A stretch of DNA of 64,000 nucleotides from sequence record OQ417969.1; one strand, written 5' to 3'. The stretch comes from Mycobacterium phage prophiT37-1. Numbering within the stretch: position 1 is the stretch's first letter; the number at the start of each line of letters is the position of its first letter. The translations under genes were made by a program, and so were the position numbers. The notes below the pieces were generated by a model. The model saw only the letters and a program-made list of their open reading frames with translations. It made no database searches and had not been told where the DNA came from. Shown one piece after another: positions 1-16,362 of this stretch.

Positions 1-37
1 CAGAAGGTTGGGGGTTCGAATCCCTTCGGGCGCACCA
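1..37 (+). tRNA. 3' end of a tRNA gene (T-arm, 3' acceptor strand, A73, encoded CCA); probable attL/common core of prophage insertion
   Basis: GGGGG-TTCGAAT-CCCTT T-arm followed by CGGGCGC-A-CCA; the 5' part of the tRNA lies left of the window so the isotype cannot be called. Confidence 0.6.
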
Positions 38-266
38 CAGACGGCCCGTCGCCCTCGGGCGGCTGCTCACCTTCGCCGTCGGCTAACCAACTAACTGGAA
101 CACCGCAGGCGAGTGCCCAGGCGTTTAGGACAATTTTCTTGGGGACGGTCCGGCCCTTTTCGCAATTGCCAATTACTGACCGGCCGACGCCCATCATTTC
201 GGCCAGTTGCCTTTGATCTAGTTGGGCTTCTTCCCGTGCGATCTGTAGGCGGTATCGCAGACGCAT
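1..266 (-). CDS. immunity repressor, XRE-family HTH; 3' end runs off the window through the tRNA/att core
   Basis: minus-strand frame open from stop at 440-438 to the window edge. Best start is ATG 266-264 (alternatives 302, 416), giving N-terminus MRLRYRLQIAREEAQLDQRQLAEMMGVGRSVIGNCEKG, a canonical XRE helix-turn-helix. Divergent from a cro/xis-like gene. Confidence 0.6.
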   Translation of the reverse strand, partial: MRLRYRLQIAREEAQLDQRQLAEMMGVGRSVIGNCEKGRTVPKKIVLNAWALACGVPVSWLADGEGEQPPEGDGPSVVRPKGFEPPTF

Positions 267-464
267 TGGGGGGATGTTCCCGGTTTCGTATGCAACGGTC
301 ATATGCGCATGGTATGCGCGTACGCGCACACTCGCAAGGTGGTGCAAATTGACCCGATCCGCAAACACCCCCTGATTGCTACTAAAGCCCAATAAGTTCC
401 CTATCTGCGAAAACATCCATAGATGCGCTTGCGCGCACTATGCGAATATGCGCAAGATGGGCGT
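267..464. promoter_or_regulatory. divergent promoter/operator region between repressor and cro-like gene
   Basis: perfect palindromes ATGCGCAT (303-310) and TGCGCGTACGCGCA (315-328); repeated 9-mer ATATGCGCA (301-309 and 446-454); further ATGCGC half-sites at 423-437. Confidence 0.5.
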
Positions 465-698
465 ATGGCCGCACCAACCGCTGAGACACCCGAGCAGCCA
501 GACGAGATCACCGTCACCAAGGCCGCGACTACATACAACGTCTCCAAACGGACCCTCCAGGCACTCGCCGTGTCCGGCCGCATCCCTGCACGATTGGTCG
601 GCAAGACCTACCTGCTCGACCACCAGGCAGTCCGCCTATACGCACAGGCGCGCCAGGCCACCCGCGACCTCAACGACTACGCCCAGGCCGCGTCATGA
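465..698 (+). CDS. Cro/Xis-like DNA-binding protein (excisionase/MerR-type HTH)
   Basis: ITVTKAATTYNVSKRTLQALAVSGRIPARLVGKTYLL is a typical phage Xis/HTH_17-like motif; start chosen downstream of the operator repeats (alternative ATG 423). Confidence 0.55.
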   Translation: MAAPTAETPEQPDEITVTKAATTYNVSKRTLQALAVSGRIPARLVGKTYLLDHQAVRLYAQARQATRDLNDYAQAAS

Positions 699-1609
699 GC
701 ACCGTCGCAGCCACCGCCATGTCCCCGTCGGCCGCTCGTGACCTCACCGAGCGCATCCGCACCACCATTGACCGCGCCTGGGACCTCATCGCCAAGGCAT
801 ACACAGACCGCGCCTGGGCTGTCCTCGGATACCCGACCTGGGACGTCTACTGCGAACGCGAGTTCGGGTCCACCTGGTTCAAGCTGCCCCGCGACACCCG
901 CGGCGAGGTAGTGCAGTCCCTGCGCGACCTCGGCCTGTCCACGCGCGCCATCGGCTCCGCGATAGGGGTCGATGACCGCACCGTCCGCCGCGACCTGTCA
1001 GGCGCGGCATCTGCCGCACCTGCGGCTGTCATGGGCACCGACGGCAAGACGTACGCGTCCACCCAGCCCGTCCGCCCTCACCTGGCCGTCGTGCCAGACC
1101 TCCCCACAACCGAAGACCACCCGGAGACCGCCCCGACGTGCGAAGGCGGGACGGCCTCCGGGGTTCCACTGACCCCGTCGCTACTCATGACCGGCGACGG
1201 GTACTCAGTCGTGCACAACGCACCCGTGACCGACGGCGTAGAGCCGACCCTCACCTCGTTCGCCATGTGCCCCTGCGGCGCCCGAGCCGAGCTGTACGAC
1301 AACGCCACCCAGGAAGACCGCGAACGCTTCGACGAGTTCGACGACATCCACCGCTACTGCGACGACCTGACGGAACCTGTCGCGACAGAACCGGAACCCG
1401 AGCCAGCGCCAACCCCAGCGCGCCGGAAACCGATCACAGACTCCTTCGACGACGCCACCACGGCAGTCACGAAGGCGGTGAAGCGGGTAGAGGCACTGGC
1501 GGCCGACGACCGCTTCGACAAGAACGCGGACCAACTCGCCCTACGCAAGAGCGACCTGGTCCGCGCACGAGACGCGCTGCAACGCGTCATCGAGAAGTTC
1601 CCCTCGTAA
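695..1609 (+). CDS. hypothetical early protein with HTH-like segment
   Basis: 304-aa ORF with ATGA overlap to upstream gene; LGLSTRAIGSAIGVDDRTVRRDL resembles an HTH. Confidence 0.5.
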   Translation: MSTVAATAMSPSAARDLTERIRTTIDRAWDLIAKAYTDRAWAVLGYPTWDVYCEREFGSTWFKLPRDTRGEVVQSLRDLGLSTRAIGSAIGVDDRTVRRDLSGAASAAPAAVMGTDGKTYASTQPVRPHLAVVPDLPTTEDHPETAPTCEGGTASGVPLTPSLLMTGDGYSVVHNAPVTDGVEPTLTSFAMCPCGARAELYDNATQEDRERFDEFDDIHRYCDDLTEPVATEPEPEPAPTPARRKPITDSFDDATTAVTKAVKRVEALAADDRFDKNADQLALRKSDLVRARDALQRVIEKFPS

Positions 1610-1629
1610 CCACAACAAGGAGTTGCTTC

Positions 1630-2493
1630 ATGTCGAATGCTATACCGCTGCACCGGCCACCGGCCATCACGACGGACATCGAAACCATCGACGGCCCGAC
1701 CGCCGACGCGTACCTCAAGTTCAACACCCACAACCGCCCCCTCAACGAGCGCAAGGTCATCCAGCTGGCCGCCGACATGGAGGCAGGCCGTTGGCAGATG
1801 AACGGCGAGGCAATCAAATTCGATACCGAGGGCGCCCTGCTGGACGGCCAGCACCGCCTCCACGCCGTCTCCTTGTGCGGTGTGTCCATCGACTCGGTCG
1901 TCGTCCGCAACCTGCCACCCGAAACCCAGATCACCATGGATCAGGGCACCAAACGGTCACCCAGCGACCAACTCAACCTGTCCGGCATCACCGCCTCCAA
2001 GTCCGATGCCTCGGCCGTCAAGACGCTGATCATCTGGGAGCGCGGCTGGTTCTACACCGACCGCGCCACCGGCGCAGTCACCAGCTCTGAGATCGTCGAA
2101 TGGACCCTCGCCAACCCCGGCACCTTTGAGTTGATCAGGCGCGGCACCCACTACACGCGCATCAAGGCGCGCCGCGGCCTCATCATGGCCGTCTACGCGG
2201 GCATCGGCCGCATCCACGGTGTCGAGGTCACCTCCGAATTCTTTCAACGCACCCTCGACGGCGTCGGCCTCGAAATCGGCTCGCCAATCCTTGCACTGCG
2301 CAACAGGTTCGACCGCGTTCGTGGCGAGGGCTTCAAGATGCCCGACGCCGAGGCCATCGGCTACTTCGTCGCCGCCTTCAACCACTGGCTATCCGACCAC
2401 CACGTGGCCCGGTTGCAGCAGCCCAAGGGAGGCTGGAATAAGACCAACTTCCCGCAGCTCGTAGGCGCACCAGCACAGGAAGTACTCCGGTGA
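1630..2493 (+). CDS. ParB-like nuclease domain protein
   Basis: AAGGAG RBS 8 nt upstream; N-terminal IETIDGPTADAYLKFNTHNRP...LLDGQHRLHA matches the ParB/Srx N-terminal domain. Confidence 0.7.
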   Translation: MSNAIPLHRPPAITTDIETIDGPTADAYLKFNTHNRPLNERKVIQLAADMEAGRWQMNGEAIKFDTEGALLDGQHRLHAVSLCGVSIDSVVVRNLPPETQITMDQGTKRSPSDQLNLSGITASKSDASAVKTLIIWERGWFYTDRATGAVTSSEIVEWTLANPGTFELIRRGTHYTRIKARRGLIMAVYAGIGRIHGVEVTSEFFQRTLDGVGLEIGSPILALRNRFDRVRGEGFKMPDAEAIGYFVAAFNHWLSDHHVARLQQPKGGWNKTNFPQLVGAPAQEVLR

Positions 2494-2589
2494 TCCGCGA
2501 GGTAGTCGTCCCCATGTTCTGGATGCTCCTGTTCGGTGCCTTCGTTGGCGTCGTCCTCACGGTCAACGTCATGGCCGCCCGGTGATGAC

Positions 2590-2946
2590 ATGGCGCGCAT
2601 CCACCAACGACTCGAGTTGCCAATGCATCTCACGGACATCACCGGCGACCAAACCGTGGCCGACGCTGCGCGCCTGCTATCCCTCGACCCGGCAATCGCC
2701 GTCGGCCGCGACCAACTCTTCGACGCCATGGCCCGCGAGGAATGGATATTCCGCGGCCGTGACCACCGCTGGATCGCCTACGCCGAATCCGTAACCCTCG
2801 GCTACCTCGCACTCCACGACGGAGGCGAATACCAAACGCCCGCAGGACAAACCAGAGAACGTCCCAAACAGATCTACCTAACCCCTAACGGTGTCGCGGA
2901 AATGCACTACCGCCTCGGCGGTAGCCAACAACTAGCACTGACCTGA
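2590..2946 (+). CDS. hypothetical protein
   Basis: ORF in frame of 2536..2946; start uncertain. Confidence 0.4.
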   Translation: MARIHQRLELPMHLTDITGDQTVADAARLLSLDPAIAVGRDQLFDAMAREEWIFRGRDHRWIAYAESVTLGYLALHDGGEYQTPAGQTRERPKQIYLTPNGVAEMHYRLGGSQQLALT

Positions 2947-2977
2947 TCAACCACTCACTCAGCACAAGGAGACAGCT

Positions 2978-3127
2978 ATGCCCGTACGAGAATCCAAGTG
3001 GTGGCGCCGCGCCCTATTCGGTGTCCAACCGACACCGCCACCGACGCCCCCAAGTCCCAACCCAATCTGGGACGAGCTGGCCGCCAAGCATGGCAGCCCG
3101 GCTGAAATATGGGGTACAGCAGCATGA
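2978..3127 (+). CDS. small hypothetical protein (49 aa)
   Basis: strong AAGGAG RBS directly upstream of the ATG; not in the supplied ORF track because it is under 60 aa. Confidence 0.35.
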   Translation: MPVRESKWWRRALFGVQPTPPPTPPSPNPIWDELAAKHGSPAEIWGTAA

Positions 3128-3738
3128 TTGAGAACACCTCGCAACGCCACCCCATCGAGCATCTAGTTGGCTGCCTGGACGGCAACACCTCCAACTACAT
3201 CGAGGGCATGGAGCGAACTGGGCAACAGCAGCTCCTCACGTCCGACCTCCTCCCTGCCAATGCCGGGCGAGTGTGGTCAGGCGAGGGCGACGCAATGCTC
3301 GACATCAGTGGCTGGGATGTTCTGGAACAGTGGGGATTCCAACGCAGCGAACGCGTTGAGGGCGATCCGCTATTCGTTCGGGCCACCCTCCCGGAAGGGT
3401 GGTCACGCAAGGGCAGTGAACACGCCATGCACTCAACCATCGTCGACGACCGCGGCGTAGAACGCGTCAGTGTCTTCTACAAGGCTGCCTTCTATGACCG
3501 CCGCGCCAGTATGTCCGTGATCACCGACCCCGGAGGCAATCTCGGAAGCACCGCGATCTATAGCGACGCCGCCGTGGCCCTGCCGGACGAATGGGCGGTG
3601 CTCACCACCGAAGAGCGCGACGGATTCCGAGGCGCGCTCGATAGCTATCTGCGTCGAGCCGACGAGTATCCAGACATCTACGAGGACCGAGTGCCCCGCG
3701 TGCGTAGCCTCCTGGCGCTGGTGGAGGCCGCCGCATGA
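3124..3738 (+). CDS. hypothetical protein
   Basis: ORF overlapping the upstream stop (ATGA-type). Confidence 0.5.
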   Translation: MIENTSQRHPIEHLVGCLDGNTSNYIEGMERTGQQQLLTSDLLPANAGRVWSGEGDAMLDISGWDVLEQWGFQRSERVEGDPLFVRATLPEGWSRKGSEHAMHSTIVDDRGVERVSVFYKAAFYDRRASMSVITDPGGNLGSTAIYSDAAVALPDEWAVLTTEERDGFRGALDSYLRRADEYPDIYEDRVPRVRSLLALVEAAA

Positions 3739-4034
3739 TTCGCCAACTTCCCACCGTCGCTATGGCTGCCGCGCTGGCGCTCGCCACCGCAGCACCTGCG
3801 TCGGCCGACAGGGTCAACGACGTCGCCAATGACATCGGCGGCGCAGTCTGCGTCATCGTCGGCGCCGACCCAACCTTCCACGGCATCAACAGCATCGGCC
3901 AGGCGCTCAACCTACGGGGGTTCACCGACCAGGCCGCCGGACGCGTCATCGCTCTCTCGGTATCCGCCTACTGCCCATGGCATCAACCACTCATCGACCT
4001 GTACACCAAGGCATCCCGCTGGAGGACTGCATGA
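3735..4034 (+). CDS. small secreted protein
   Basis: N-terminal signal peptide MIRQLPTVAMAAALALATAAPASA. Confidence 0.5.
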   Translation: MIRQLPTVAMAAALALATAAPASADRVNDVANDIGGAVCVIVGADPTFHGINSIGQALNLRGFTDQAAGRVIALSVSAYCPWHQPLIDLYTKASRWRTA

Positions 4035-4603
4035 GCCGCGACGTATGGGTCATCGACCTGGAGACAACCGGACTCGACCGGAATGTCCACCTACCCGTGG
4101 AAGTGGCCGCGATCAACCTCAAGAACGGACGCGAAATCCACTTCGTGCCCTTCATCACTGGCGAGGCACTAGGACAAGCGGACCGAGAAGCCATGCGGAT
4201 CAACAAGTACCACGAGCGGGCGCTGTACAAAGATCAGCTCGACCGCAACAACTCGATTCGCAGCTACCAAGACCTTTTCGAGTTGTTGCACGGCCAAACA
4301 TTGGCAGGGGCAAACCCCAGGTTCGACGCCGACATGCTCCTCAACGGATACGCGTGGCAGCTAGAACAGGGGCCACTCGTAGCCGGGGTCAGCACCCGCA
4401 TCGAGGAGCCGTGGCACCACCGGCTCGCAGACCTATGTGCCTACACCGCAGGACAACTCGACATCTCGCCAGACGACATACCCGGCCTCGCCGGGGTGTG
4501 CCAACTACTTGGCGTCACCAACGAGGCCGAGCACACCGCGATAGGTGACGCCCGCGCAACCGTCCAATGCTTCCGCCGCCTCTACCCCGGGAAGGACCAA
4601 TGA
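4031..4603 (+). CDS. DEDDh 3'-5' exonuclease (DnaQ-like)
   Basis: Exo motifs VIDLETTG, NPRFDADML and HTAIGDARAT. Confidence 0.7.
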   Translation: MSRDVWVIDLETTGLDRNVHLPVEVAAINLKNGREIHFVPFITGEALGQADREAMRINKYHERALYKDQLDRNNSIRSYQDLFELLHGQTLAGANPRFDADMLLNGYAWQLEQGPLVAGVSTRIEEPWHHRLADLCAYTAGQLDISPDDIPGLAGVCQLLGVTNEAEHTAIGDARATVQCFRRLYPGKDQ

Positions 4604-4854
4604 ACGACCCCGTCGCACGCCACAACCAGCTGGTGAGCAAGAACATCGAAATCGCCATGAGCAAGTTGTCTCCCATGGAGCGGCTGCGGAAGCAGACAGC
4701 CGCCAATTCCAACACCCTCGGGTACGCCGTCTTCCTGGGACTGCAACGACAGGCCAACACCTACGCCGGGACAGTGCCCGCAGACGAGGTCCAGCGTCGG
4801 CGCCGCCGGAACCGTGCGGCCCGCAAGGCGCGCCGCAGGAACCGCGCAGCATGA
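4600..4854 (+). CDS. hypothetical basic protein
   Basis: ATGA overlap; Arg-rich C-terminus. Confidence 0.45.
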   Translation: MNDPVARHNQLVSKNIEIAMSKLSPMERLRKQTAANSNTLGYAVFLGLQRQANTYAGTVPADEVQRRRRRNRAARKARRRNRAA

Positions 4855-5636
4855 GGAAAGAATGCACCCGCCCCAACTGCACCGAGTTGGTGCAGGCCCG
4901 CGGGCTGTGCCCCACCCACTACGCAAAGTACCGGCGCCTCGCCGTCTCCGACGGCCGCTGGAGCCCACTACACGTACCAGCGGACGACACCCGCACCCGC
5001 GTCCTCGCCCTCATGGCAGCGGGCGTCGGCATATCCCGAATCGCAGAACTAGCTGGAGTGACCCACCGGGCCATCGACTTCCTGACCAGGGAAGACCAAC
5101 GGCTGGTGAAACGGACCACCCGCGCCGCCATCCTCGCTATCCCGGTGCCTGTATGTCCGTTTGGGCCGCAGATGGCCGCTGGCGCGCGGATCGATGCCAC
5201 CGGTTCACGGCGCCGCGTCCTGGCCCTTTCCGCGGTCGGATGGTCTCAACAGCACCTCTCGGTACGCCTCGGGCTAGACCCCGGCGGCCTGTCCAAGGTC
5301 GCGACGGGCGCCGTCAAGAAGGTCACGGTGGCCCGCGCCCGAGAGATCGACGCGCTGTACCGCGAGTTGCAGGAGGTACCAGGTCCTTCCGACGTCGCAC
5401 GGCGCATCGCCACGCAGAGGGGATGGCCGCCGCCGGTGGCATGGGACGACACCGAAATCGACGACCCAGCGGCAACGGCCCACGTCCGCGGAGGGCAGGT
5501 CGTGTGGATCGACCTGTACCGCGACTACCTCGACCTCGGACTGTCCAACGACGAGATCGCCGAACGCATGGGAGTCACAACGGAATCCGTCGAGGCACGA
5601 CTCAAGCGGCTACGCAAGAAGGGCATAGCGGCATGA
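4851..5636 (+). CDS. DNA-binding protein with several HTH-like repeats
   Basis: repeated G(V/I)xxIAELAGVT-type HTH segments. Confidence 0.5.
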   Translation: MRKECTRPNCTELVQARGLCPTHYAKYRRLAVSDGRWSPLHVPADDTRTRVLALMAAGVGISRIAELAGVTHRAIDFLTREDQRLVKRTTRAAILAIPVPVCPFGPQMAAGARIDATGSRRRVLALSAVGWSQQHLSVRLGLDPGGLSKVATGAVKKVTVARAREIDALYRELQEVPGPSDVARRIATQRGWPPPVAWDDTEIDDPAATAHVRGGQVVWIDLYRDYLDLGLSNDEIAERMGVTTESVEARLKRLRKKGIAA

Positions 5637-5845
5637 CGGCACGCAAAAAGGCCGAGCCGCTACCTGGTGCCATAACCACTCAGGAACGCAACGACGGCAC
5701 CGGTTGGAGCTGGCGATGGTTCTCCAACAAGGGCAACGTGCACTTTCACCCGGGACCGTTCCCAACTACCGCTGCTGCGCGCGCCGCAGCCCGTAAGTGG
5801 GTACGAGACAACGTCCTTCGCGAGGCGCCCGGTGACGACGAATGA
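5633..5845 (+). CDS. hypothetical protein
   Basis: ORF with translational coupling. Confidence 0.4.
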   Translation: MTARKKAEPLPGAITTQERNDGTGWSWRWFSNKGNVHFHPGPFPTTAAARAAARKWVRDNVLREAPGDDE

Positions 5846-6027
5846 GCGCGCGGCGACGCTGCCCGGTCTGCGGTGCAACCGTGTTCCGCACACCCAAGGG
5901 CAACGTCCTCGCTCATCACGACCCACACGGCATAGCGCGCTGCCCCATGTCATACGAGAAGTTCGACCTGTGCGAGCCGTGGACCCCACGCGTCAAACAC
6001 ATCTGGGAACGGCGAGCCGCAGCGTGA
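5842..6027 (+). CDS. small zinc-ribbon-like protein
   Basis: CPVCG...CP..C pattern. Confidence 0.4.
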   Translation: MSARRRCPVCGATVFRTPKGNVLAHHDPHGIARCPMSYEKFDLCEPWTPRVKHIWERRAAA

Positions 6028-6374
6028 CAACAGACGACATCTGGGCAGAGCCGTACATATACCAGTGGACCGAAGACCTGACTCGTGAGCACGTCAAGGG
6101 CCGGTCAATGGGCTGGTGCGAGTGGTGCGGCAAGCAGCACGGGACAGACATGCACCACCGCCGCAATCGGTCACAAGGCGGCCAGTGGCACCCGGCCAAC
6201 ATCGTGCACCTGTGCCGCGACTGCCACCACTGGGTCACCACCAACCCGGTGGACGCCGAAGCAGTCGGACTCACCCTCACCCACGGCCAGGACCTCTACG
6301 ACACCCCCATCGCGCTGCCTCTGCACGACATCTACCTGCACGACAACTACCTACCGAAGGGCCGCAACGCATGA
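6024..6374 (+). CDS. HNH endonuclease
   Basis: CEWCG...HHRRNRSQGG...NIVHLCRDCHHW is an HNH motif; GTG start overlapping the upstream stop. Confidence 0.7.
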   Translation: MTTDDIWAEPYIYQWTEDLTREHVKGRSMGWCEWCGKQHGTDMHHRRNRSQGGQWHPANIVHLCRDCHHWVTTNPVDAEAVGLTLTHGQDLYDTPIALPLHDIYLHDNYLPKGRNA

Positions 6375-7267
6375 CCGCCGCCGACACCAAGCTGATCCCT
6401 GCCGTGGACGGTATGTATGCCGGTATCCCCGACGAGGCCTACCACGCAGACCGCGGCAGCCTGTCCTCCTCCGGCGCCCGCGCGCTCCTGGCGCCGTCAT
6501 GCCCAGCGATATTCCGCCACTACCAGGACCAGCCGCGGACACCGAAGAAGGAGTACGACTTCGGCCACGCTGCCCACCTGTACGTACTCGGCGAGGGCGG
6601 GGAGATCGTCGCGCTAGACCCGAAGGAACACGGGTTGACGAAAGACGGCAAGGTGTCCGACTCGCCTACATCGACCGCTATGTGGAAGGAGGCGGCGAAG
6701 GAGGCCCGCGCTAACGGCCAGATACCCATGCACATCGACGATGTCGCGGAGGCAAAGGCTATGGCCGCCAAGGTCCGCGAGCACCCCATTGCCCGCATCC
6801 TGCTGGCAGACGGAACACCCGAGCTATCCGGGTACTGGCACGACCCTGAAACCGGGGTGCGACTGCGCCTCCGGCCCGACTGGCTCCCCAACCCCGGCCG
6901 CCACCGCCTGGTGGTTGTCGACTACAAGACCTCGACATCGGCGCACCCAGGTCACTTCGCCAAGGCGGCAGCCGAATACGGGTACCACATGCAGGCCCCC
7001 TGGTACCTCGACGGGCTGGCGGCATGCGAGATAGCCGACGACGCCGCGTTCGTGTTCATCGTCCAGTCCAAGAACCCGCCCTACCTCGTGTCGGTCAACG
7101 AACTAGACCCCGCCGCAATCGATCTCGGCCGACGATGCAACCGCAAGGCCATCGACCTCTACGCGCAATGCGTTGCCAACGACCACTGGCCGGACTACGG
7201 CCAGGGCATCAACTCCATATCCCTGCCCAGCTACGCCATCTACCAGCAAGAAGGAGACCTTGACTAA
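6371..7267 (+). CDS. PD-(D/E)XK exonuclease (RecE/Cas4-like)
   Basis: LRPDW...LVVVDYKTS nuclease core; sits immediately upstream of an annealing protein. Confidence 0.7.
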   Translation: MTAADTKLIPAVDGMYAGIPDEAYHADRGSLSSSGARALLAPSCPAIFRHYQDQPRTPKKEYDFGHAAHLYVLGEGGEIVALDPKEHGLTKDGKVSDSPTSTAMWKEAAKEARANGQIPMHIDDVAEAKAMAAKVREHPIARILLADGTPELSGYWHDPETGVRLRLRPDWLPNPGRHRLVVVDYKTSTSAHPGHFAKAAAEYGYHMQAPWYLDGLAACEIADDAAFVFIVQSKNPPYLVSVNELDPAAIDLGRRCNRKAIDLYAQCVANDHWPDYGQGINSISLPSYAIYQQEGDLD

Positions 7268-8475
7268 TGACCGTCTCGCAGTACCAGCCCATCGCCGCTG
7301 CACCCCGGACCGCGATCAGCCAAGCCACCTCGGTGGAACAGTCCCGTGCCGTCGCCGAGGTCCAGTCAGCAGTCATTGTTGCGCAACAGATTCCCCGTGA
7401 CCTCCAGCGCGCCGAGGCGGAAATGCGGGACGCGTGCAGCCGCATGGCCATGGCGGTACAGGCGTTCTACCAGGTGCCCAACCGCGGCACCGGCCCCTCC
7501 GTGCACCTCATGCGCGAGCTGGCCCGGCTGTGGGGCAACGTTCAATACGGCGTCAACGAGCTGCACCGCGACGACCTCAAAGCTGAGTCCGAGATCCAGG
7601 CATTCGCCTGGGACGTCCAGACCAACACGCGCTCCACACGTACGTTCATCGTGCCGCACGCCCGTATGAAGCAGGGGCGCCGCGAGGAGCTAAACGACCT
7701 CGGCGACATCACGAACAACAACAACAATGCCGGTGCCCGCGCTGTCCGCGAATGCATTTCGTCGGTGCTGCCGAAGTGGTTTACCGAGATGGCGCAGGAC
7801 CTGTGCCGCAACACCTTGGAAAAGGGCGAAGGCGTCCCCCTCAAGGACCGCATCGAAACCATGGTCGCCAAGTTCCGGCAGGAACTCGGTGTCACTGAGG
7901 CCCAGATGGAGGCCCGGATCGGGAAGAAGCGCGGCGCCTGGGACGCCGGAGACGTCGCCCAGATGGGCATCACGTACACCTCCATCACCCGCGACGGCAT
8001 GGACCAGCGCGAGATCTTCCCGCCCGCCTCACAGTCCACCCAAGACGAAATCACCGCCCGTGCAACAGAAACAAAGGCCACTCCGAAGACGGACCCCGCG
8101 TCAACGACCACCGGTGATCTGGCGCCCACCATCGGGGACCCGGAAACGGGTTCGGGCGCTACAGAACCCGCGGCCGAGGAGGTCCCCGTGCCGGACGGCG
8201 GTGACCTCATCCCGCCGTCCGGCAGCGGAACACCTGACGGAGCCGACCCGGCAGAAGTGAACAGCCGAGGCGAGTACCTGGCAACGAAGAAGGACATCGG
8301 CACCGTCCGCGGCCTTCTAGGCAACGCCAAGTACTCGTTCCGCACCAAAGAATCCGCTGTCGACGCACTGGCCTACCTCAAGACGGTCATCAGCAGGGAC
8401 ATATCGGACATCAACGACCTGTCCGAAAACGAAGCGGCAAACCTCATCGCCGCACTCAACAACAAGGAGAACTAA
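7267..8475 (+). CDS. single-strand annealing protein (RecT-like)
   Basis: position after the exonuclease; N-terminal region resembles RecT-family SSAPs; acidic Pro/Thr-rich C-terminus. Confidence 0.5.
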   Translation: MTVSQYQPIAAAPRTAISQATSVEQSRAVAEVQSAVIVAQQIPRDLQRAEAEMRDACSRMAMAVQAFYQVPNRGTGPSVHLMRELARLWGNVQYGVNELHRDDLKAESEIQAFAWDVQTNTRSTRTFIVPHARMKQGRREELNDLGDITNNNNNAGARAVRECISSVLPKWFTEMAQDLCRNTLEKGEGVPLKDRIETMVAKFRQELGVTEAQMEARIGKKRGAWDAGDVAQMGITYTSITRDGMDQREIFPPASQSTQDEITARATETKATPKTDPASTTTGDLAPTIGDPETGSGATEPAAEEVPVPDGGDLIPPSGSGTPDGADPAEVNSRGEYLATKKDIGTVRGLLGNAKYSFRTKESAVDALAYLKTVISRDISDINDLSENEAANLIAALNNKEN

Positions 8476-8479
8476 CCAA

Positions 8480-9367
8480 ATGTCCTGGGAATTCGTAACA
8501 TTCCTCATCGTCGGCGGCATCGCACTGCTGCTATTTCTGGGCGGTCTAGGCGTCAAATTCCTAGACCGTAACTCTGAGGGCGCCGTTGTCTCGATGGGCG
8601 TCGGTGTCATAGGCGTTGTGTTGGCCTTCGCGGTCCTCCTGATCGGCTGCTTCACGGTCGTAGGCACCCGCAAGGTCGGTATCGAGACCGTGTTCGGAAA
8701 GCCCTCCGGCGAGACGCTGTCCAACGGCTTTCACTGGAAGAAGCCGTGGGCGACGGTCGACGAGATGGACGCGGCAGTCCAGATCGATAAATACGAGGGC
8801 ACCGGCCGCATCAAGGTCCGCCTGGGCAACTCGTCCACCGCCGACGCTGACGTATCCGTGCGCTGGCAGATCAAGCAGGACGCCGCCGACGAGCTGTACG
8901 TGCAATACCGGTCATTCGACAACGTTCGCACCAACCTCATCACCCGCAACCTCCAGGTCTCACTCAACGACGTGTTCTCCAAGCTCGACCCACTGGCAAC
9001 CAAGTGGGCCAACGGATTACCGCTGGAGACCTTCGCCAAGGAAGCGTCCGAGAAGCTACGCGCCCTGGTAGGTGACCAGGTCGACATCCTGGACGTCGCC
9101 GTCCCCACCATCGACTATGACGACGGCACCGAGGCCCGTATCAACGAGCTGAACGCAGAGCGTGCGAACACCGCGAAGGCCGAACAGGCGAAGAAGACGG
9201 CCACCGAACAGGCCGAGGCCAACCGCATCCTCTCCTCATCAGTATCCAACGACCCCAACGTGATTGTGCAGAACTGCATCACGAAGGCACTGGACAAGGG
9301 CATGTCGCCGTGGGGCTGCTGGCCCGGCACCGGCGCCCTCGCCACCATCACCGCACCCATCAAGTAA
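8480..9367 (+). CDS. SPFH/band-7 (prohibitin/HflC-like) membrane protein
   Basis: two N-terminal TM helices followed by GIETVFGK...GFHWKKPWATVDEMD, an SPFH signature. Confidence 0.6.
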   Translation: MSWEFVTFLIVGGIALLLFLGGLGVKFLDRNSEGAVVSMGVGVIGVVLAFAVLLIGCFTVVGTRKVGIETVFGKPSGETLSNGFHWKKPWATVDEMDAAVQIDKYEGTGRIKVRLGNSSTADADVSVRWQIKQDAADELYVQYRSFDNVRTNLITRNLQVSLNDVFSKLDPLATKWANGLPLETFAKEASEKLRALVGDQVDILDVAVPTIDYDDGTEARINELNAERANTAKAEQAKKTATEQAEANRILSSSVSNDPNVIVQNCITKALDKGMSPWGCWPGTGALATITAPIK

Positions 9368-9393
9368 CACCCCACGAAAGGAACACCGCCCAT

Positions 9394-9759
9394 ATGACCA
9401 CTCCAGCCCCCGAGGAAGCGGACCGGGTACGCCCGTTCGCCGACTTCCTGCGGGAACTACAGAAGGGCCGCGTGCACGACGAGCTGTCCGACGGCCTCAA
9501 GGAAGTTGTTGCCGCCGTCCGCGCGACCGGCAAGGCCGGGTCACTCACGTTGAAGCTCAGCGTTTCTGAGCAGGCCAACACCTCCATGTTGGTCATCAAG
9601 GACGACGTGACTGTCAAGGCGCCGCAGGCCGACCGCCAGGTATCCCTCTGGTTCGTCGACCGCGAGGGCAACGTCACCCGCACCGACCCGGCGCAACTCC
9701 AGTTCGAGTCCATGAAAGCGGTCGCCGAGAGCACCACGAACATCCGAAAGGAAGCCTGA
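9394..9759 (+). CDS. hypothetical protein
   Basis: ORF within 9310..9759 frame; ATG follows a GAAAGGAAC RBS-like sequence. Confidence 0.45.
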   Translation: MTTPAPEEADRVRPFADFLRELQKGRVHDELSDGLKEVVAAVRATGKAGSLTLKLSVSEQANTSMLVIKDDVTVKAPQADRQVSLWFVDREGNVTRTDPAQLQFESMKAVAESTTNIRKEA

Positions 9760-9762
9760 CCC

Positions 9763-10587
9763 ATGACCGACGAAATCCGTACCGAGGCAGATGCTGTCGC
9801 CGAACTCGCCAACGCGGCGGAGCGTTACAGCACTGAGCAGGTTGTGCCCGACACCGAGCACGTCCTGTCGTTCGTCACCCGCGACGACGAGGGCCGCGAC
9901 TTCGACTCGCTGGAGCGGTACCTGCCGAACCCTCGACGCGACCGCGGCACCACCACCGTGCTGGACGTCGACAGCTTCAACAAGCTGACCGACGGCGTCC
10001 TGCAACTCGATGCCGTCGCGTACGCCGACCGCGGCCCCAGCCGGATCACCGCGGTACTGAACGACAAGGGCTGGCGTGACCACCGCATCGTGGTGGCGCT
10101 CCAGCTGTCCCGCGAGTGGAACCACTGGGCGGCAGCCGACGGCAAGCTGCTCAACCAGATTGCGTTCGCCGAGCACATCGAGGACGGCCTGGCCGCCATC
10201 ACGTCGCCACCGGCGGCGGACCTGATGGAGGTCGTGCAGAACTTCCAGACGAAGCGCAAGGTCGAGTTCCAGTCCGGCCACCGCACCCAGTCCGGCGAGG
10301 TGCAGTTCCAGTACAAGGAGGAGGCCACCGCAACCGCTGGCGGCAAGGGCGGGCATATCGAGGTGCCCGAGCACTTCACCCTCCGCATCCCGGTCTACGA
10401 GCGCGGCGACGTGTACGACCTGACCGCCCGCCTGCGGTTCCGCATCGGCCAGGACGGCTTGCTCCTCGGCTACAAGCTGGACCGCGCCGGGGACGTCAAG
10501 GACGCAGCGTTCGACGCTGAGGTGGCGAAGCTGGCCGTCATCAAGTCCGTGTTTGGTCCCGCGCCCGACACGATCCGCGAGCTGTGA
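9763..10587 (+). CDS. hypothetical protein (274 aa)
   Basis: long ORF, coding periodicity. Confidence 0.5.
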   Translation: MTDEIRTEADAVAELANAAERYSTEQVVPDTEHVLSFVTRDDEGRDFDSLERYLPNPRRDRGTTTVLDVDSFNKLTDGVLQLDAVAYADRGPSRITAVLNDKGWRDHRIVVALQLSREWNHWAAADGKLLNQIAFAEHIEDGLAAITSPPAADLMEVVQNFQTKRKVEFQSGHRTQSGEVQFQYKEEATATAGGKGGHIEVPEHFTLRIPVYERGDVYDLTARLRFRIGQDGLLLGYKLDRAGDVKDAAFDAEVAKLAVIKSVFGPAPDTIREL

Positions 10588-10607
10588 GCAGGAGGAAGGA
10601 GTTCCCG

Positions 10608-10985
10608 TTGGTGGCGGTGTTAGCCGTCACCAACGGACTCCCCGAAGGCGCCATCTGCACCGTGGTGCAGGTGCAGGACCTGTTGTCGCACATGACCGGT
10701 AACCGCATCTTCCTGCATCAGATACCGCGGGCGAAGGACGTGTGCGGAAAGTTCCTCCGCGACCAGCACACCTGGCTAGACAACACCTGCCCGTCGTCCG
10801 AGCAGCTGGCCGACGTCGCCAAGTTGCGGCGCTGGGCGAATGCAGTGGAGAAGGTGCGCGGCGAAACGGTGAAGGTCAGCGTGTTGCCCGGGGACGCGTA
10901 CACCTACATGGACCCGATCATCGAGAACGCGGTCAACATCAAGGCCGCGGAGCAGGCAGCCAAGGAGAAGGCGGCGGCAGGGTGA
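10608..10985 (+). CDS. hypothetical protein
   Basis: GGAGGAAGGAG RBS then TTG start; in frame of 10584..10985. Confidence 0.4.
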   Translation: MVAVLAVTNGLPEGAICTVVQVQDLLSHMTGNRIFLHQIPRAKDVCGKFLRDQHTWLDNTCPSSEQLADVAKLRRWANAVEKVRGETVKVSVLPGDAYTYMDPIIENAVNIKAAEQAAKEKAAAG

Positions 10986-11260
10986 CCACACACTCCGCCA
11001 CCGGCTACTTGATCTTGGAGGCGTCCCGCGGCTGGCGCATGGGTGACGACGGACTCAAGGTCGTCAACGGCCTACGCATCGCCGGATACCGGGCCAACCG
11101 CCCGGCGAAGCTGGCGCGGGACCAGATCACCGTCAAGGTCGGGGTGACAGTGGATGCGGCTGAATTCTCGCCCATAACAGCAGAAATCGCGATCACCCTC
11201 GACCCGTCTCAGGTCATCCACCCGGTCATTGAAGCCCTAGACCCAGCCAAGGAGCCCTGA
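10982..11260 (+). CDS. hypothetical protein
   Basis: GTGA overlap start. Confidence 0.4.
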   Translation: MTTHSATGYLILEASRGWRMGDDGLKVVNGLRIAGYRANRPAKLARDQITVKVGVTVDAAEFSPITAEIAITLDPSQVIHPVIEALDPAKEP

Positions 11261-11556
11261 TGGCCACCCTCACCCAGGCCGACATGTTCCCCACAGCGAA
11301 GCGGAACACCCTCAATTACCGGGGCGACATCGCCGACCACGTCATGAGTGTGAACCAGCGATGGGGGCCGGACATGTTCGGTGCCCTCTACACACCCGTG
11401 GCGGCGGTCTACGACCCCGAGGCCGACCAGACAAAGGTCACCTTCCGGTCTATCCCACGCCCACAACCACAACGCGCCCACCAGCGCGACGAGATCCCGT
11501 TGGCACATCCGGACGGCAACCGGCGCCAGCGCCGAAGCAAGGGGAAGAAGTATTGA
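11260..11556 (+). CDS. hypothetical protein
   Basis: ORF. Confidence 0.45.
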   Translation: MATLTQADMFPTAKRNTLNYRGDIADHVMSVNQRWGPDMFGALYTPVAAVYDPEADQTKVTFRSIPRPQPQRAHQRDEIPLAHPDGNRRQRRSKGKKY

Positions 11557-11918
11557 CTACCAACGATATTGAGCGCGTGGTGAAGGCAGCAGCTGACGTC
11601 ACCAACCGACTCCTCCATGGAGTAGCCAACCGGATCGATACATTCGTCCAGAGTGTTGATACGGAAGCACTGGCCGACGCGATCACCGGTATGCGGGCCA
11701 CAGTCCACCCCGGCACGAAACCTGCGCCAGCTCAGACCGTGTATGTAAGGACCGCGGTGCGGTGCGTCACCTGCCAGGGCGTGTACCGCGTCAAGACCGA
11801 CGGGCGTAACCCGCTGTGGGTATGCCAGCCTTGCGCCCGCCAATGGTGCCGCTGGGACGGTGTCGCACCGCAGGTTTCAACACACCTGCGAGTTGTTGGG
11901 GCGGGGGAGAAGCGATGA
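11553..11918 (+). CDS. hypothetical protein
   Basis: TTG start overlapping the upstream stop; C-terminal CxxC...C..C. Confidence 0.4.
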   Translation: MTTNDIERVVKAAADVTNRLLHGVANRIDTFVQSVDTEALADAITGMRATVHPGTKPAPAQTVYVRTAVRCVTCQGVYRVKTDGRNPLWVCQPCARQWCRWDGVAPQVSTHLRVVGAGEKR

Positions 11919-12883
11919 CCGCCACCGGCCCCAACAACCACCACTGGCTGCGCAAGTGGTTGCGCCTGGAACCGCATCAACCCATCGGCGCCGAAGGCGA
12001 GGCGCCGTACCTATTGCGCTGGTACGTAATCCCGCGCAACCGGTGGCTCAACATCTACCTACACAAGTTCCTGCGTGACGACGACGACCGCGCCCTGCAC
12101 GACCACCCCTGGTGGTTCGTCTCCCTGATGTTGTGGGGGCAGTACGTGGAGGTCACTGAGGAGGGTCGGTCCGTCAGGTCCGCCCCGGAGCCGTGGCGCT
12201 TCTTCTGGGGCGACCGGCCGCTGGCATTCCGGCGAGGCACATGGCGGCACCGCGTGGAGTTGGTACCGGCCGCGACGCACTCAAATCAGTTCCTCGCGCG
12301 CCGCGATCAGCGCAAGCTCCCGTGCTGGACACTCATCGTGACAGGGCGGCGGGTACGCCTTTGGGGGTTCTGGTGCAAAGACCGCGCGGATGAAACCAAC
12401 GTCGACAACGCCATCGACCGTATGCGCGTGCGGCGCGGTGAGGTCTTCGAAGTAGACCGGTTTATCCCATGGGACGAGTTCGGGGCGGCTGGGTGCGGTG
12501 AGCCCACAACGGTGGACGAACAGCAGCGACCGGGCACGTCACCCACCCGCGTAATAGACGCAGCACACCTGGCGCGACAGCGTGCATTCAGCCTCGCAAC
12601 CTTCGGCCCGGGTGCCCGAACCAACGGAGTCTTGGACCACATCGGCAAAGAGCTGAACGAGATACGGGACGCCCCTGACGACATCTCCGAATGGGTAGAC
12701 GTCATCATCCTGGCCTTCGACGGAGCCTGGCGCGCGGGCTGGGAACCGCAACAGATCATCGACGCGATCCTTGCGAAGCAGACCAGGAACGAGCAACGCA
12801 CGTGGCCCGACTGGCGCACCGCAGACCCCAACAAGGCCATCGAGCACGTGCACAGCGACGTAGACGGCGACGTAAACCGATGA
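11915..12883 (+). CDS. two-domain protein with C-terminal MazG-like NTP pyrophosphohydrolase domain
   Basis: C-terminal LDHIGKELNEIRDAPDDISEWVDVIILAFD has a MazG-like EExxE/D pattern. Confidence 0.45.
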   Translation: MTATGPNNHHWLRKWLRLEPHQPIGAEGEAPYLLRWYVIPRNRWLNIYLHKFLRDDDDRALHDHPWWFVSLMLWGQYVEVTEEGRSVRSAPEPWRFFWGDRPLAFRRGTWRHRVELVPAATHSNQFLARRDQRKLPCWTLIVTGRRVRLWGFWCKDRADETNVDNAIDRMRVRRGEVFEVDRFIPWDEFGAAGCGEPTTVDEQQRPGTSPTRVIDAAHLARQRAFSLATFGPGARTNGVLDHIGKELNEIRDAPDDISEWVDVIILAFDGAWRAGWEPQQIIDAILAKQTRNEQRTWPDWRTADPNKAIEHVHSDVDGDVNR

Positions 12884-13350
12884 AGATCATTGATACACAA
12901 CGGCAATGGGCCGTCGTGTGCACCGTATGCCCACCCGGACCCGGTGACAGCGACGGCCAAACCTGGGCATTCCCAGGCACCGATGAAGGCAAGGTTCACG
13001 CGGAAGCATTTGCCGTCCGCCACAACTCGCTGCAAGGTCACCGCACTTACGTCAGCGAGCAGTACGTCATGGAGGCGACCCTGCGCGACAATGGAGCGGG
13101 GTACATGGCCCTGCCTCTGGACGCTGACGGGGAGCGCCTAGCCTCCGCTATTGCCGTAAAGGTCAACCTTCCAACGGTATTCCCCGGCCGCCCCGCGGTG
13201 TACTACCTCGCCACCTGCCAGGAGTGCGTCGATATGAAGCTCCCGTTTGGCGCCGAGGACGACCGTGACCTATGGGCCGACGGCCACCACAAGGGCACTG
13301 GCCACGACGTCACCCCATCCGTCGAAGTACGACCGGACCAAGGGGAATAA
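12880..13350 (+). CDS. hypothetical protein
   Basis: ATGA overlap. Confidence 0.45.
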   Translation: MKIIDTQRQWAVVCTVCPPGPGDSDGQTWAFPGTDEGKVHAEAFAVRHNSLQGHRTYVSEQYVMEATLRDNGAGYMALPLDADGERLASAIAVKVNLPTVFPGRPAVYYLATCQECVDMKLPFGAEDDRDLWADGHHKGTGHDVTPSVEVRPDQGE

Positions 13351-13352
13351 CG

Positions 13353-13565
13353 GTGAGCCAAACAGTCCACATCCGCACCGGCATCTACACCACCAGCGGC
13401 GGAATCACTTTCACCGTCAACGACAGCGATCTAGGCGTATGCGGCATAACCCACTGTGGGCAGACCGCGATGATCGCCATAGACCTTGACGGCCAGGGCG
13501 GCCTTCGCTGCCCCGAGCACTACCAGCCGTGGGCGGACAACCCCGCAGAAACGAGCGAGCAATGA
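13353..13565 (+). CDS. small hypothetical protein
   Basis: GTG start 3 nt after the upstream stop. Confidence 0.35.
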   Translation: MSQTVHIRTGIYTTSGGITFTVNDSDLGVCGITHCGQTAMIAIDLDGQGGLRCPEHYQPWADNPAETSEQ

Positions 13566-14167
13566 CCATCTACTGCTACGACACAGAGTTCCTGGAAGAC
13601 GGCCGCACCATAGACCTGATCTCAATCGGAATCGTGTGCGAGGACGGCCGCGAATACTACGCCGTCAACAGCGAGGCCGATTGGGACCGTATCCGCAAGG
13701 ACGACTGGCTCATGGACAACGTCGTACGCCACTTGCCCACCCACCCAACCGGGGAGGTGAAGAAGCGTCAAGGATTCAGCGCTACCGGTTGGTCGTGGGG
13801 AGGAATAGACATGCGCTCCCCGCTGGTAAAGCCAAAGTGGGTAATTGCCAACGAGGTTCGCCAGTTCATCATCGGTGACCTCGCAGACCGAAACGAGGCT
13901 GTCGCCGACCACGAGCTACCGGTGCTCTGGGCTTACTACGGCGCCTACGACCACGTGGCCCTGTGCCAGCTATGGGGTCGGATGATTCACCACCCTCGGT
14001 TCATGCCCATGTACACCCTGGACCTCAAGCAGGAGATGGACCGCCTCAGTATCAGCGGCAGCACTGTACCGAAACCTGGTACCGCCCACGACGCTCTTTC
14101 CGACGCCCGGTGGAACTGGCGAATGCTCAACAAACTGCGCACCGCGGCAGCAGAGGCGGCGTTCTGA
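13562..14167 (+). CDS. DEDDh 3'-5' exonuclease (second copy)
   Basis: YCYDTEF, YGAYDHVAL and HDALSDA exo motifs. Confidence 0.7.
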   Translation: MTIYCYDTEFLEDGRTIDLISIGIVCEDGREYYAVNSEADWDRIRKDDWLMDNVVRHLPTHPTGEVKKRQGFSATGWSWGGIDMRSPLVKPKWVIANEVRQFIIGDLADRNEAVADHELPVLWAYYGAYDHVALCQLWGRMIHHPRFMPMYTLDLKQEMDRLSISGSTVPKPGTAHDALSDARWNWRMLNKLRTAAAEAAF

Positions 14168-15183
14168 TGGGGGACAAAACAGGCATCGAATGGACTGATG
14201 CCACTTGGTCACCAGTGACCGGTTGCACCCGTGTCAGTGATGGATGCCTGAACTGCTACATCGAACGATCGACACCAATTCGTATCGCAGGCCGAAAGTT
14301 TGACGGTGAAGGCATCGGGTCGAGTCTGGCGGTACAACTCCACCCGAACCGTCTGGACTGGCCACTCCGAAAGCGTGACGGGAAGAAGATCTTCGTCTGC
14401 TCACAAGCCGACCTTTTCCACTCTGATGTGCCCGACGAGTACATCGCGAAGGTGTTCGCCGTCATGGCGCTCGCCCCGCACCACACCTTCCAGGTGCTCA
14501 CCAAACGCCACGACCGCATGCGGTCGCTCCTGAGTAGTCATGCCTTCTGGGCGCGGGTTGGCGTGGCGGGGCTCGACCGCGATGTTTGGTTGCCCCAGGC
14601 CGGTGTTTCGCTAGATCAGCACTACCTGCCCAACGTCTGGTTGGGAGTGAGCGCAGAAGATCAGAAGCGCGCCGACCTCCGCATCCCGGCGCTGCTGGAC
14701 ACCCCGGCCGCCGTGCGGTTCATCAGTGCCGAGCCGCTTCTCGGGCCGATCGACCTACATGCCGACCCGATCGGGAAAGACTCGGTGTTCTGGATCGGGC
14801 GTCTGGACTGGGTGATCGTCGGCGGCGAGTCCGGGTCGGGCGCGCGGCCGATGCATCCGTGGTGGGCGGAGAGCCTGCACCGCCAGTGTGTGGCAGCCGG
14901 TGTCCCGTTCCTGTTCAAGCAATGGGGCGATTGGACACCCATGGCGCCGTTGAAGAAGGGCCGTTTCGACTTCTCGAACGGTATCGCGATGACCGACGAC
15001 GGAAACACCTACAACGCGGGTGATCTGGACTGGCCTGACGGCCCGCGCCGTGGTGAGGCGATACGCGCCGACTTCCCACACCACCACCCGACCTCCATGT
15101 ACCGCGTCGGGAAGAAGGCGGCGGGCCGCGAGCTGTACCACGACGGCCGGACCTTCGACGGCTACCCCCAGGTGTTGGCGTGA
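14167..15183 (+). CDS. phage Gp37/Gp68-family protein
   Basis: N-terminal GIEWTDATWSPVTGCTRVSDGCLNCY is the family signature. Confidence 0.7.
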   Translation: MGDKTGIEWTDATWSPVTGCTRVSDGCLNCYIERSTPIRIAGRKFDGEGIGSSLAVQLHPNRLDWPLRKRDGKKIFVCSQADLFHSDVPDEYIAKVFAVMALAPHHTFQVLTKRHDRMRSLLSSHAFWARVGVAGLDRDVWLPQAGVSLDQHYLPNVWLGVSAEDQKRADLRIPALLDTPAAVRFISAEPLLGPIDLHADPIGKDSVFWIGRLDWVIVGGESGSGARPMHPWWAESLHRQCVAAGVPFLFKQWGDWTPMAPLKKGRFDFSNGIAMTDDGNTYNAGDLDWPDGPRRGEAIRADFPHHHPTSMYRVGKKAAGRELYHDGRTFDGYPQVLA

Positions 15184-15377
15184 TGGCGTTTCAGGCTAAA
15201 TACCGCGGGCAGTGCCGTAACTGCGGTGAGCAGATCGAGCCGGGTGACTTGGCGACCTACATGCACGATCACATCGTCCATGACCAATGCCCTGACGCGG
15301 TCGATCCGGCACAGCCCGGGCGGCAGGAGCGAAAGTGCCCGGACTGCCACACAATCCACGCAGGGGAGTGCTTCTGA
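15180..15377 (+). CDS. small Cys-rich protein
   Basis: CRNCG...CPDC. Confidence 0.4.
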   Translation: MMAFQAKYRGQCRNCGEQIEPGDLATYMHDHIVHDQCPDAVDPAQPGRQERKCPDCHTIHAGECF

Positions 15378-16012
15378 TGACGACCGTCTGGTTCACCTCC
15401 GACCTACACATCGGGCATGCCCTGGTCGCGGAGGAACGCGCCAACCGCGCCAACATCGCGGTCCCGCTGGCCCCTACAGAACGTAGTGAGCACTGCATCC
15501 GGTGGCACGACCGGACCCTCGCCGAGAATTGGGACGCAGTCGTTCAGCCGCACGACCAGGTGTGGGTGCTGGGCGACCTCAGCGCCGGATCATCTGGAGC
15601 ACAAAGGAACGCGCTGAAATGGATCGAGCAAAGGCCCGGCGAGAAGCACCTGGTTTCCGGGAACCACGACCGCGTCCACTCCATGTATCGGGACGCCCAC
15701 AAGTGGCAGGCGCACTACCTGGAGGTGTTCCAGTCGGTGCAGCCGTTCGCCCGTCGCCGCGTGGGCGGACACACCGCGTTGCTGTCGCACCTGCCCTACC
15801 GCGGCGACCACACCACGGAGCAGCGCTACAACCAGTACCGGCTCCGCGACGAGGGCGAGTGGCTTCTACACGGGCACACCCATTCCCGCGCCAGCTTCCT
15901 CCCACATGTGCACCAACGGCAGCTCCACGTGGGCGTAGACGCATGGCAGATGGCGCCCGTGAACATCGACGTGCTGGCTGACGGCATAGAGCAGCTGGGA
16001 GCCGAGTGGTGA
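15377..16012 (+). CDS. metallophosphoesterase (calcineurin-like)
   Basis: FTSDLHIGH...GNHD...GHTH motifs. Confidence 0.65.
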   Translation: MTTVWFTSDLHIGHALVAEERANRANIAVPLAPTERSEHCIRWHDRTLAENWDAVVQPHDQVWVLGDLSAGSSGAQRNALKWIEQRPGEKHLVSGNHDRVHSMYRDAHKWQAHYLEVFQSVQPFARRRVGGHTALLSHLPYRGDHTTEQRYNQYRLRDEGEWLLHGHTHSRASFLPHVHQRQLHVGVDAWQMAPVNIDVLADGIEQLGAEW

Positions 16013-16362
16013 GCGGCGGCAGCTTCAACTACCTGTACTCGGACGCCCTAGACGAAGTCATGTGCCACATGTCCACCCTCAACGACATGGCCGACGCCCT
16101 CGACTCGTCCTTTCCGGGAACTCGCGCCGCACGGGACACCCGCGCACTCATCGCCCGCATTAACGAGGCGTTGACCGCGTGGGAGTCCGAGCAGATGAGG
16201 GCGCTACGGGACGTCTGGCACGACGTCGAGTGGTGGATGTCCATGGACTACAGCCGAGATAAGGCACAGGCGGCCGTCGACAACTACCGCAGCAACCACA
16301 ACGGGCTGCTCAGCTGGGCGCCCATGTCCGGCAACGCAACCCACAACAAGGAGACAGCGTGA
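16006..16362 (+). CDS. hypothetical protein
   Basis: ORF. Confidence 0.45.
   Translation: MVSGGSFNYLYSDALDEVMCHMSTLNDMADALDSSFPGTRAARDTRALIARINEALTAWESEQMRALRDVWHDVEWWMSMDYSRDKAQAAVDNYRSNHNGLLSWAPMSGNATHNKETA

Follow-up and report, generated by a model that had tools for sequence, protein, structure and literature searches.

The window analysed here is the whole 64,000-nucleotide stretch of prophiT37-1 DNA (OQ417969.1). Its opening letters, CAGAAGGTTGGGGGTTCGAATCCCTTCGGGCGCACCA, had been read from the sequence alone as a tRNA 3' end with an encoded CCA ending at position 37. ARAGORN called no tRNA in the whole 64-kb window, in agreement with the published count of 0 tRNAs for prophiT37-1, and cmscan of the window alone gave a 5'-truncated Rfam tRNA match at 1–34 (20.7 bits, E 0.37) that does not reach the gathering score, so the left flank was needed to identify the gene. 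This flank was taken from Logan contig L003, which was retrieved via exact look-up of a neighbouring 304-aa protein, is 100% identical to window positions 1–11609 and reaches 9.3 kb further left. On this contig ARAGORN finds a complete tRNA-Arg(ACG) at 9268–9343, across the attL junction and preceded by a tRNA-Ser. As window position 1 corresponds to position 9307 of L003, the tRNA including its CCA ends at window position 37, which bears out the sequence-only reading. Positions 1–37 (plus strand) are the 3' 37 nt of this host-type tRNA-Arg(ACG) and comprise the end of the anticodon stem, the variable loop, the T arm, the 3' acceptor strand, the discriminator A and the CCA; the 5' half is outside the window, to its left. 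The leftward extension that had been suggested for locating the tRNA 5' half and the stop codon of the repressor yielded both.

The attL common core, of the attB-1 type, occupies positions 1–38, and the same 38 bp form an identical repeat at both ends of the related prophage prophiGD43A-5. The first 30 nt of the attR core of prophiT37-1 itself were seen on contig L032 (described below) and show one mismatch with attL at position 10, where the window attL has G (Pro, giving ...PPTF in the repressor) and its own attR and most relatives have A (Leu, ...PLTF). Among the matches listed, position 10 of other actinobacterial tRNA-Arg genes covaries with its T-stem partner as A...T or G...C, indicating that the G in the window forms a G·U pair, not A-U, within the T stem. 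The attP of BPs likewise has G at core position 10, and the ...PPTF form of the repressor was found in Logan assemblies only (18 contigs with the exact 100-aa protein). Should the host have A here, the crossover would have occurred within core positions 1–9.

The immunity repressor in its prophage form, a protein of 100 aa, is encoded at 1–302 on the minus strand, as indicated by the gene call, Pfam matches (HTH_3, E 1.5e-10; Phage_CI_repr, 1.2e-4; also HTH_19 and HTH_31), the exact protein on the same 18 contigs, and homology to BPs gp33 and Bipper gp51. The HTH domain covers residues 18–79, and residues 89–100 (VRPKGFEPPTF) are encoded by core positions 1–38 on the minus strand, antisense to the tRNA. 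The last sense codon, at 5–3, is Phe, and the prophage protein ends ...VRPKGFEPPTF; bases 2 and 1 of the window supply the first two letters of the stop codon TGA, and the host T that precedes position 1 completes it. The sequence-only reading had placed the start of an XRE repressor frame at 266 and let it run through the tRNA to the window edge. The minus-strand frame from 266 is indeed open up to the edge, encodes an XRE/HTH_3 protein and lies antisense to the tRNA; the start most likely has to be moved to the ATG at 302 (MTVAYETGNIPP...), and the frame closes with the TGA at the edge, the last base of which falls outside the window. A stop immediately left of position 1 had been named as evidence against an att-linked layout if it were unrelated to att; such a stop is there in form, but it is created by the att junction. 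The start at 302 is favoured over 266 by the choice of the gene caller and by conservation in prophiGD43A-5, BPs gp33 and Bipper gp51, and prophiGD43A-5 has Ser rather than Met at residue 13, the position of 266. By homology with BPs gp33, the 100-aa protein would be the active immunity repressor, equivalent to the stable and active gp33(103). In the prophiGD43A-5 record (MW584167) the repressor misc_feature begins at a GTG at position 143 and would thereby omit the HTH domain; the open frame reaches back to the conserved ATG at 299, MTAAFESGNIPP..., and the annotated 5' limit looks too short.

The repressor is separated by a divergent control region at 303–464 from a rightward gene at 465–698 (plus strand) that encodes a small HTH_17 protein of 77 aa (MerR/excisionase-type; PF12728, E 5.4e-7). 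The annotation of prophiGD43A-5 calls this gene 'excise', and in BPs-type cassettes its place is taken by the cro-like gene. The control region contains TGCGCA-type palindromes, TGCGCGTACGCGCA at 315–328 and TGCGCTTGCGCGCA at 424–437, and copies of ATGCGC(A/T)(T/A)G at 303, 423 and 448. Together, clusters of ATGCGC(A/T)(T/A)G and TGCGCGxxCGCGCA at 303–331 and 423–456 flank the region; the first overlaps the start of the repressor gene, and the second the start region of the HTH_17 gene. The palindrome clusters are candidate operators, and their half-sites are unlike the 12-bp operator of BPs, CGACATATGTCG. A simple scan of 303–464 found no sigma-70 consensus promoter.

Right end of the prophage and the integrase

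The sequence-only reading had noted that no integrase is present in the 64 kb and had expected it at the far end of the prophage, and both statements hold. A tblastn search of the window with four tyrosine integrases and a resolvase gave nothing better than E 0.3, and the annotation of the syntenic prophiGD43A-5 has no integrase before 75 kb. The right end described here is a reconstruction from the window and two overlapping, identical Logan contigs from other samples, L005 and L032, rather than the deposited end of prophiT37-1. L005 is 100% identical to the window, and the 149-aa protein that it encodes just past the window's end corresponds to WJJ56188.1 of prophiT37-1. Contig L032 (Logan ERR5413584_131) was reached by looking up the exact sequence of a protein from L005 and is 100% identical to window positions 61676–64000 and to 11.9 kb of L005. 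If the terminal core is taken as 38 nt, as in prophiGD43A-5, the last position of the reconstruction is 76,211, in agreement with the length published for prophiT37-1; with 37 nt the count would change by one. The published listing gives prophiT37-1 as MabK, attB-1, Int-Y, 76,211 bp and 0 tRNAs (Amarh et al. 2023, PMC9934374).

Contig L032 ends in the att core and carries an intact tyrosine integrase of 323 aa (PF00589, E 3e-23) that starts 228 nt from the core, so that the search for the right end yielded both an integrase and an attR core, the latter over the 30 nt seen. The integrase lies at ~75 kb beside the 3' remnant of the repressor gene, the arrangement that had been predicted for the distal end of the prophage. 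Over residues 1–282 it is 81% identical in amino acid sequence to P0001, the representative of a cluster that includes the prophiGD43A-5 integrase. The C-terminus reads ...AGLTNPA in L032 and ...LYPGS in the prophiGD43A-5 type, and neither has an -AA tag. The integrase clusters P0001, P0122, P0125 and P0126 were tried as sources of the right end and gave ~25 related right arms, none of them identical to the phage of the window. At 16215–19204 of L005, beyond the window and equivalent to ~68.7–71.7 kb in its numbering, a gene for a rightward 750-aa TPR_23 protein is found together with small genes; at that place in its right arm prophiGD43A-5 has a leftward WXG/Ntox15 polymorphic-toxin cassette. 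A cassette swap has been reported for prophiT37-1 genes 103–105 (PMC9934374) and matches the TPR_23 region.

Comparison with prophiGD43A-5, BPs and Bipper-type phages

The closest described relative is prophiGD43A-5 (MW584167, 76,541 bp; cluster MabK, attB-1). The first 3 kb of the window are 92.7% identical to it from record position 1, nucleotide identity is 92.7–94.7% over the compared stretches, and the gene order is alike, running from early genes through the terminase at ~42.5 kb and the virion and lysis genes to the integrase at the far right. The 38-bp tRNA-Arg core stands at the start and the end of the record, and, as in our reconstruction, the repressor lies at attL and the integrase and a repressor remnant at attR. 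The record has a tyrosine integrase at 75,269–76,273 and a two-part repressor misc_feature at 3–143 and 76,398–76,505, which places attP within the immunity repressor. The right arms differ more, with ~75% nucleotide identity and a different integrase allele in prophiT37-1; the polymorphic-toxin cassette is swapped, and prophiT37-1 lacks the tRNA-Thr. In prophiGD43A-5 this tRNA-Thr(TGT) lies at 26001–26079, beside a gene for a Ro-like RNA-binding protein and a BrnT toxin/antitoxin pair. For MabK prophages at attB-1 the layout of integration-dependent immunity has been described, with attP within the repressor gene, a stop codon that the first bacterial base creates in the prophage, a viral repressor ending in -AA and an untagged integrase; viral repressor extensions in such systems are 20–35 residues long (Dedrick et al. 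2021, PMC8092301).

The repressor and integrase of the cluster G phage BPs, gp33 and gp32, are the archetype of integration-dependent immunity, reportedly described by Broussard et al. in 2013. In a tblastn search of phage records, gp33 and the repressors of other cluster G phages were found as homologs, gp33 with 51.3% identity over query residues 1–114 (E 1e-25), and the BPs integrase gp32 is homologous to that of prophiT37-1. The motif VRPxGFEPxTF, encoded antisense to the tRNA, is invariant in the alignment with BPs and Bipper, and the prophage forms gp33(103) of BPs and the 100-aa protein here end at the same Phe. In BPs, as here, the attP core lies inside the repressor gene, antisense to the 3' end of a tRNA-Arg, and the junction codon is Cys (TGT) in the phage and TGA at attL. 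The attB of BPs is a tRNA-Arg, and the first bacterial base turns the Cys codon into TGA (PMC9262239). The two differ beyond the core, where BPs reads on for 33 residues (CLGATRKK...DKAS) and prophiT37-1 stops one codon past the Cys, and in the position of the integrase gene, which overlaps the repressor stop in BPs and begins 228 nt beyond the core in prophiT37-1. BPs is a 42-kb phage of M. smegmatis, and prophiT37-1 a 76-kb prophage of M. abscessus. [quoted passage not shown]

Among free phages the closest repressors are those of Bipper, Typha, Cracklewink and Hilltopfarm (75–78 kb, M. smegmatis), with 56–60% identity. These phages have a similar genome size and, as here, the order xis, repressor, tyrosine integrase. 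Their long repressor is intact, and in Bipper the viral form reads ...EPLTFCFVTRP...DCDAA with an -AA end; the extension is unrelated to that of MabK. Repressor, attP and integrase are contiguous in BPs, in Bipper and in L036, a contig with an attP-type junction from the NCBI assembly GCA_900135215.1 (FSGG01000018.1).

The repressor extension and the one-base deletion

To read the viral form of the repressor, ~30 right arms of related prophages were collected and each was translated leftward from the core in the repressor frame. In all 24 arms of the prophiGD43A-5/P0001 type, as well as in arms L034 and L035, the frame continues for 35 in-frame codons ending in -AA. After ...PLTF, the reading is F-W-SVVRNPLTCIDTEPTDLVAHRSRRRAAELEADAA and stop in one variant of the prophiGD43A-5/P0001 type (24 loci in type), which is that of prophiGD43A-5 itself, F-W-SVVRNPLTCIDTEPTDLAERRSRRRAPLPDTAAA and stop in a second variant, F-W-LGVRNPLTCTDTQPTDLAEQREHRWPTRRHTAAA and stop in L034, and F-W-SGVRNTLTCADIEPTDLAEQREQRRSTRRETAAA and stop in L035. 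The four differences between the extensions of L006 and L027 are all synonymous, and the differences between L034 and L035 fall 9/2/12 on the three codon positions; this bias to third positions argues that the extension of the sister phages is a real coding segment. In the prophiGD43A-5-type arms the similarity of attP and tRNA goes beyond the perfect core, with ACTACTGAC before CAGAAGG compared with ACTACGGAT before CAGAAGG in the host (L002 16490–16506, L003 9290–9308). A C/T mismatch directly before the core decides in these arms between Trp (TGG) in the phage and a stop (TGA) in the prophage.

Arm L032, that of prophiT37-1 itself, reads F-C-stop after ...PLTF. The repressor frame gives PKGFEPLTFC followed by a stop, and the extension, LLLGVRNPLTCIDTEPTDL...TAAA, is found in the +1 frame, where the conserved 35-codon open reading frame LLLGVRNPLTCIDTEPTDLSEQRERRWSTRRHTAAA is intact up to its stop codon; the integrase starts 123 nt after this stop. 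Comparison with the closest arm, L034, shows that the loss of one base (G) at the arm/core boundary is the sole cause, changing TTC TGG TTA GGT GTT into TTC TGT TAG GTG. The frameshift would leave the viral repressor only one Cys longer than the prophage form. The deletion is also present in the independent assembly that contains L036, where the repressor gene and the T37-type integrase gene lie side by side; identity is 98.5% between its right arm and L032 and 88.9% between its left arm and the window. As annotated by NCBI, the resulting proteins are WP_074342685.1, of 101 aa, and SIA26631.1, of 89 aa, each ending in ...PLTFC. By exact look-up, in-frame 135-aa viral forms and the ...PPTFC form were absent from the collection, which held only ...PLTFC forms. 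Members of a 138-aa cluster were considered as viral forms and rejected as N-terminally over-extended gene calls, and a repressor reading the core in the +1 frame was rejected on the ground that the host side is free of stops for >48 codons, so that integration would not truncate it.

The differences between the L032 and L034 tag reading frames fall 3/2/9 on the codon positions and are mostly third-position and synonymous, which together with the intact frame suggests that the base was lost recently compared with the divergence of the arms. The tag reading frame may still be used in some way. The sequence-only reading, which had integration remove a C-terminal degradation tag, describes the prophiGD43A-5-type, L034 and L035 arms and does not describe the attP reconstructed for prophiT37-1, which reads ...PPTF-Cys-stop with the tag frame out of register. 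The same division applies to the ssrA-like tag suggested for the virion form: a candidate is present in the sister arms, in frame and ending in -AA, whereas in the arm of prophiT37-1 the frame ending ...TAAA is out of frame. By the reconstruction, the viral and prophage C-termini of prophiT37-1 differ by one Cys and not by a 35-residue tag, contrary to what had been anticipated.

Repressor stability and integration

The reading that we prefer, with a probability of about 75%, is that the window begins at the attL end of a MabK prophage with a BPs-type repressor-attP-integrase cassette, in which the tag has been uncoupled from the repressor by the one-base deletion. It builds on the cassette architecture, the junction stop, the homology to gp33, the position of the integrase and the frameshift in contigs identical to the phage of the window, each of which can be read from the sequences. 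[quoted passage not shown] Upon integration at the tRNA-Arg(ACG) 3' end, the repressor gene is split within its last codons; its 5' 300 nt stay at attL, in the window, and its 3' remnant is placed with the integrase ~76 kb away at attR. The first host base turns the junction codon into TGA, giving the 100-aa HTH repressor in the prophage, and the phage core restores the tRNA 3' end. The viral form of the sister lineages is longer by 35 residues with an -AA end, an ssrA-like tag that would make immunity dependent on integration; that this extension is a degradation tag is suggested by the literature on such systems. In the lineage of prophiT37-1, the change from TGG TTA GGT to TGT TAG would add a single Cys to the viral form and strand the tag reading frame. 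The repressor would then no longer be destabilised before integration, and immunity would be largely independent of integration, with a higher frequency of lysogeny. Thus we infer that the prophiT37-1 lineage makes a stable repressor before it integrates, and the mechanism of tag removal is probably not operating in prophiT37-1.

A phage with this frameshift is plausible as a viable variant, since a mutant of BPs with a stabilised viral repressor forms more lysogens and the phage is not killed (Villanueva et al. 2015, PMC4557955). ProphiT37-1 is not crippled either, as it still excises and is spontaneously released, with attP strongly detected (+++) in culture and supernatant (PMC9934374).

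The foremost alternative, which we regard as improbable, is that canonical integration-dependent immunity works in prophiT37-1, with a 35-residue -AAA tag in frame and the deletion either absent from the real phage or bypassed by frameshifting. All sister arms are in frame, the 35 codons of the tag frame in L032 are conserved and intact with differences biased to third positions, the published description of MabK gives the repressors -AA tags (PMC8092301), and the right end was taken from Logan contigs rather than from the T37 record. Against this, the contig with the deletion shows 100% identity where it overlaps the window, and the reconstruction agrees in length with the published 76,211 bp. 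The deletion recurs in an independent NCBI genome with a right arm that has diverged by 1.5%, and the ...PLTFC proteins were called by NCBI annotators from that genome, GCA_900135215.1. Programmed frameshifting was judged unlikely, as ACC TTC TGT TAG G contains neither an X XXY YYZ slippery heptamer nor an RF2-like CUU UGA motif.

Slightly less probable again is that dependence on integration has been kept by other means, either because the extra Cys or the mRNA or operon context makes the viral form unstable or poorly expressed, or because the decision rests wholly on turnover of the integrase. In such a case rep would be co-transcribed with int in the phage and convergent with the tRNA in the prophage. 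The viral and prophage C-termini do still differ, by a Cys against none, the viral form of BPs is degraded without a canonical -AA tag (PMC8092301), and the stability of the integrase is a second control point in such systems (PMC9262239). However, a single residue is far below the reported extensions of 20–35 residues (PMC8092301), the MabK integrase ends GLTNPA without an -AA tag, and there is no evidence of a one-residue degron. That an ordinary repressor ends beside attL by coincidence, the open frame through the tRNA being meaningless, is a reading with almost no weight and already refuted by homology across the core: open frames are common in DNA of 64% G+C and the viral and prophage proteins of prophiT37-1 are nearly the same, but the homology to BPs gp33, Bipper gp51 and prophiGD43A-5 extends through VRPxGFEPxTF and in relatives beyond it, phage genomes and L036 have repressor, core and integrase in one uninterrupted block, and the junction stop is made alike in BPs (PMC9262239).

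The layout, the immunity system and the prophage itself are already published; only the proposed uncoupling of the tag by loss of one base in the T37 lineage is possibly unreported. If the frameshift is true, it provides a natural comparison within one cluster of tagged and untagged viral repressors, which could test the effect of the tag on the frequency of lysogeny and on the constraint on tandem integration. For those who use such cassettes, with repressor genes as selectable markers or M. abscessus phages made lytic for therapy, the phage-encoded and prophage-encoded repressors appear to be nearly identical here. Tentatively, an integration-dependent immunity switch may have been 'uncoupled' naturally in the prophiT37-1 lineage, whose phage would then have a stable, active-length repressor ahead of integration; another MabK-type phage that inserted beside such an arm would still obtain a truncated, active repressor, and this could allow the hybrid junction of GCA_900135215.1.

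The L036 contig of that assembly is 102.6 kb long, begins ~6 kb into the T37-type right arm and has, at record positions 1–16275, an attP-type junction with early genes, repressor, core, integrase and right-arm genes. This junction could come from a tandem lysogen in which two different MabK phages are joined, or from a circular form that was assembled, and may be a hybrid junction between tandem prophages rather than a true attP. In several M. abscessus genomes (L006, L007, L014, L019 and L027) a second integrated element directly follows the MabK attR, and these second elements carry a tyrosine integrase of their own of 387 or 410 aa. The element in L007 and L019 is ~9.6 kb long and is bounded by another copy of the tRNA-Arg core (11236 and 20870 in reverse-complement coordinates), a sign that attB-1 is occupied in tandem. 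The neighbouring element in L006 has a tape-measure gene and appears to be a larger prophage.
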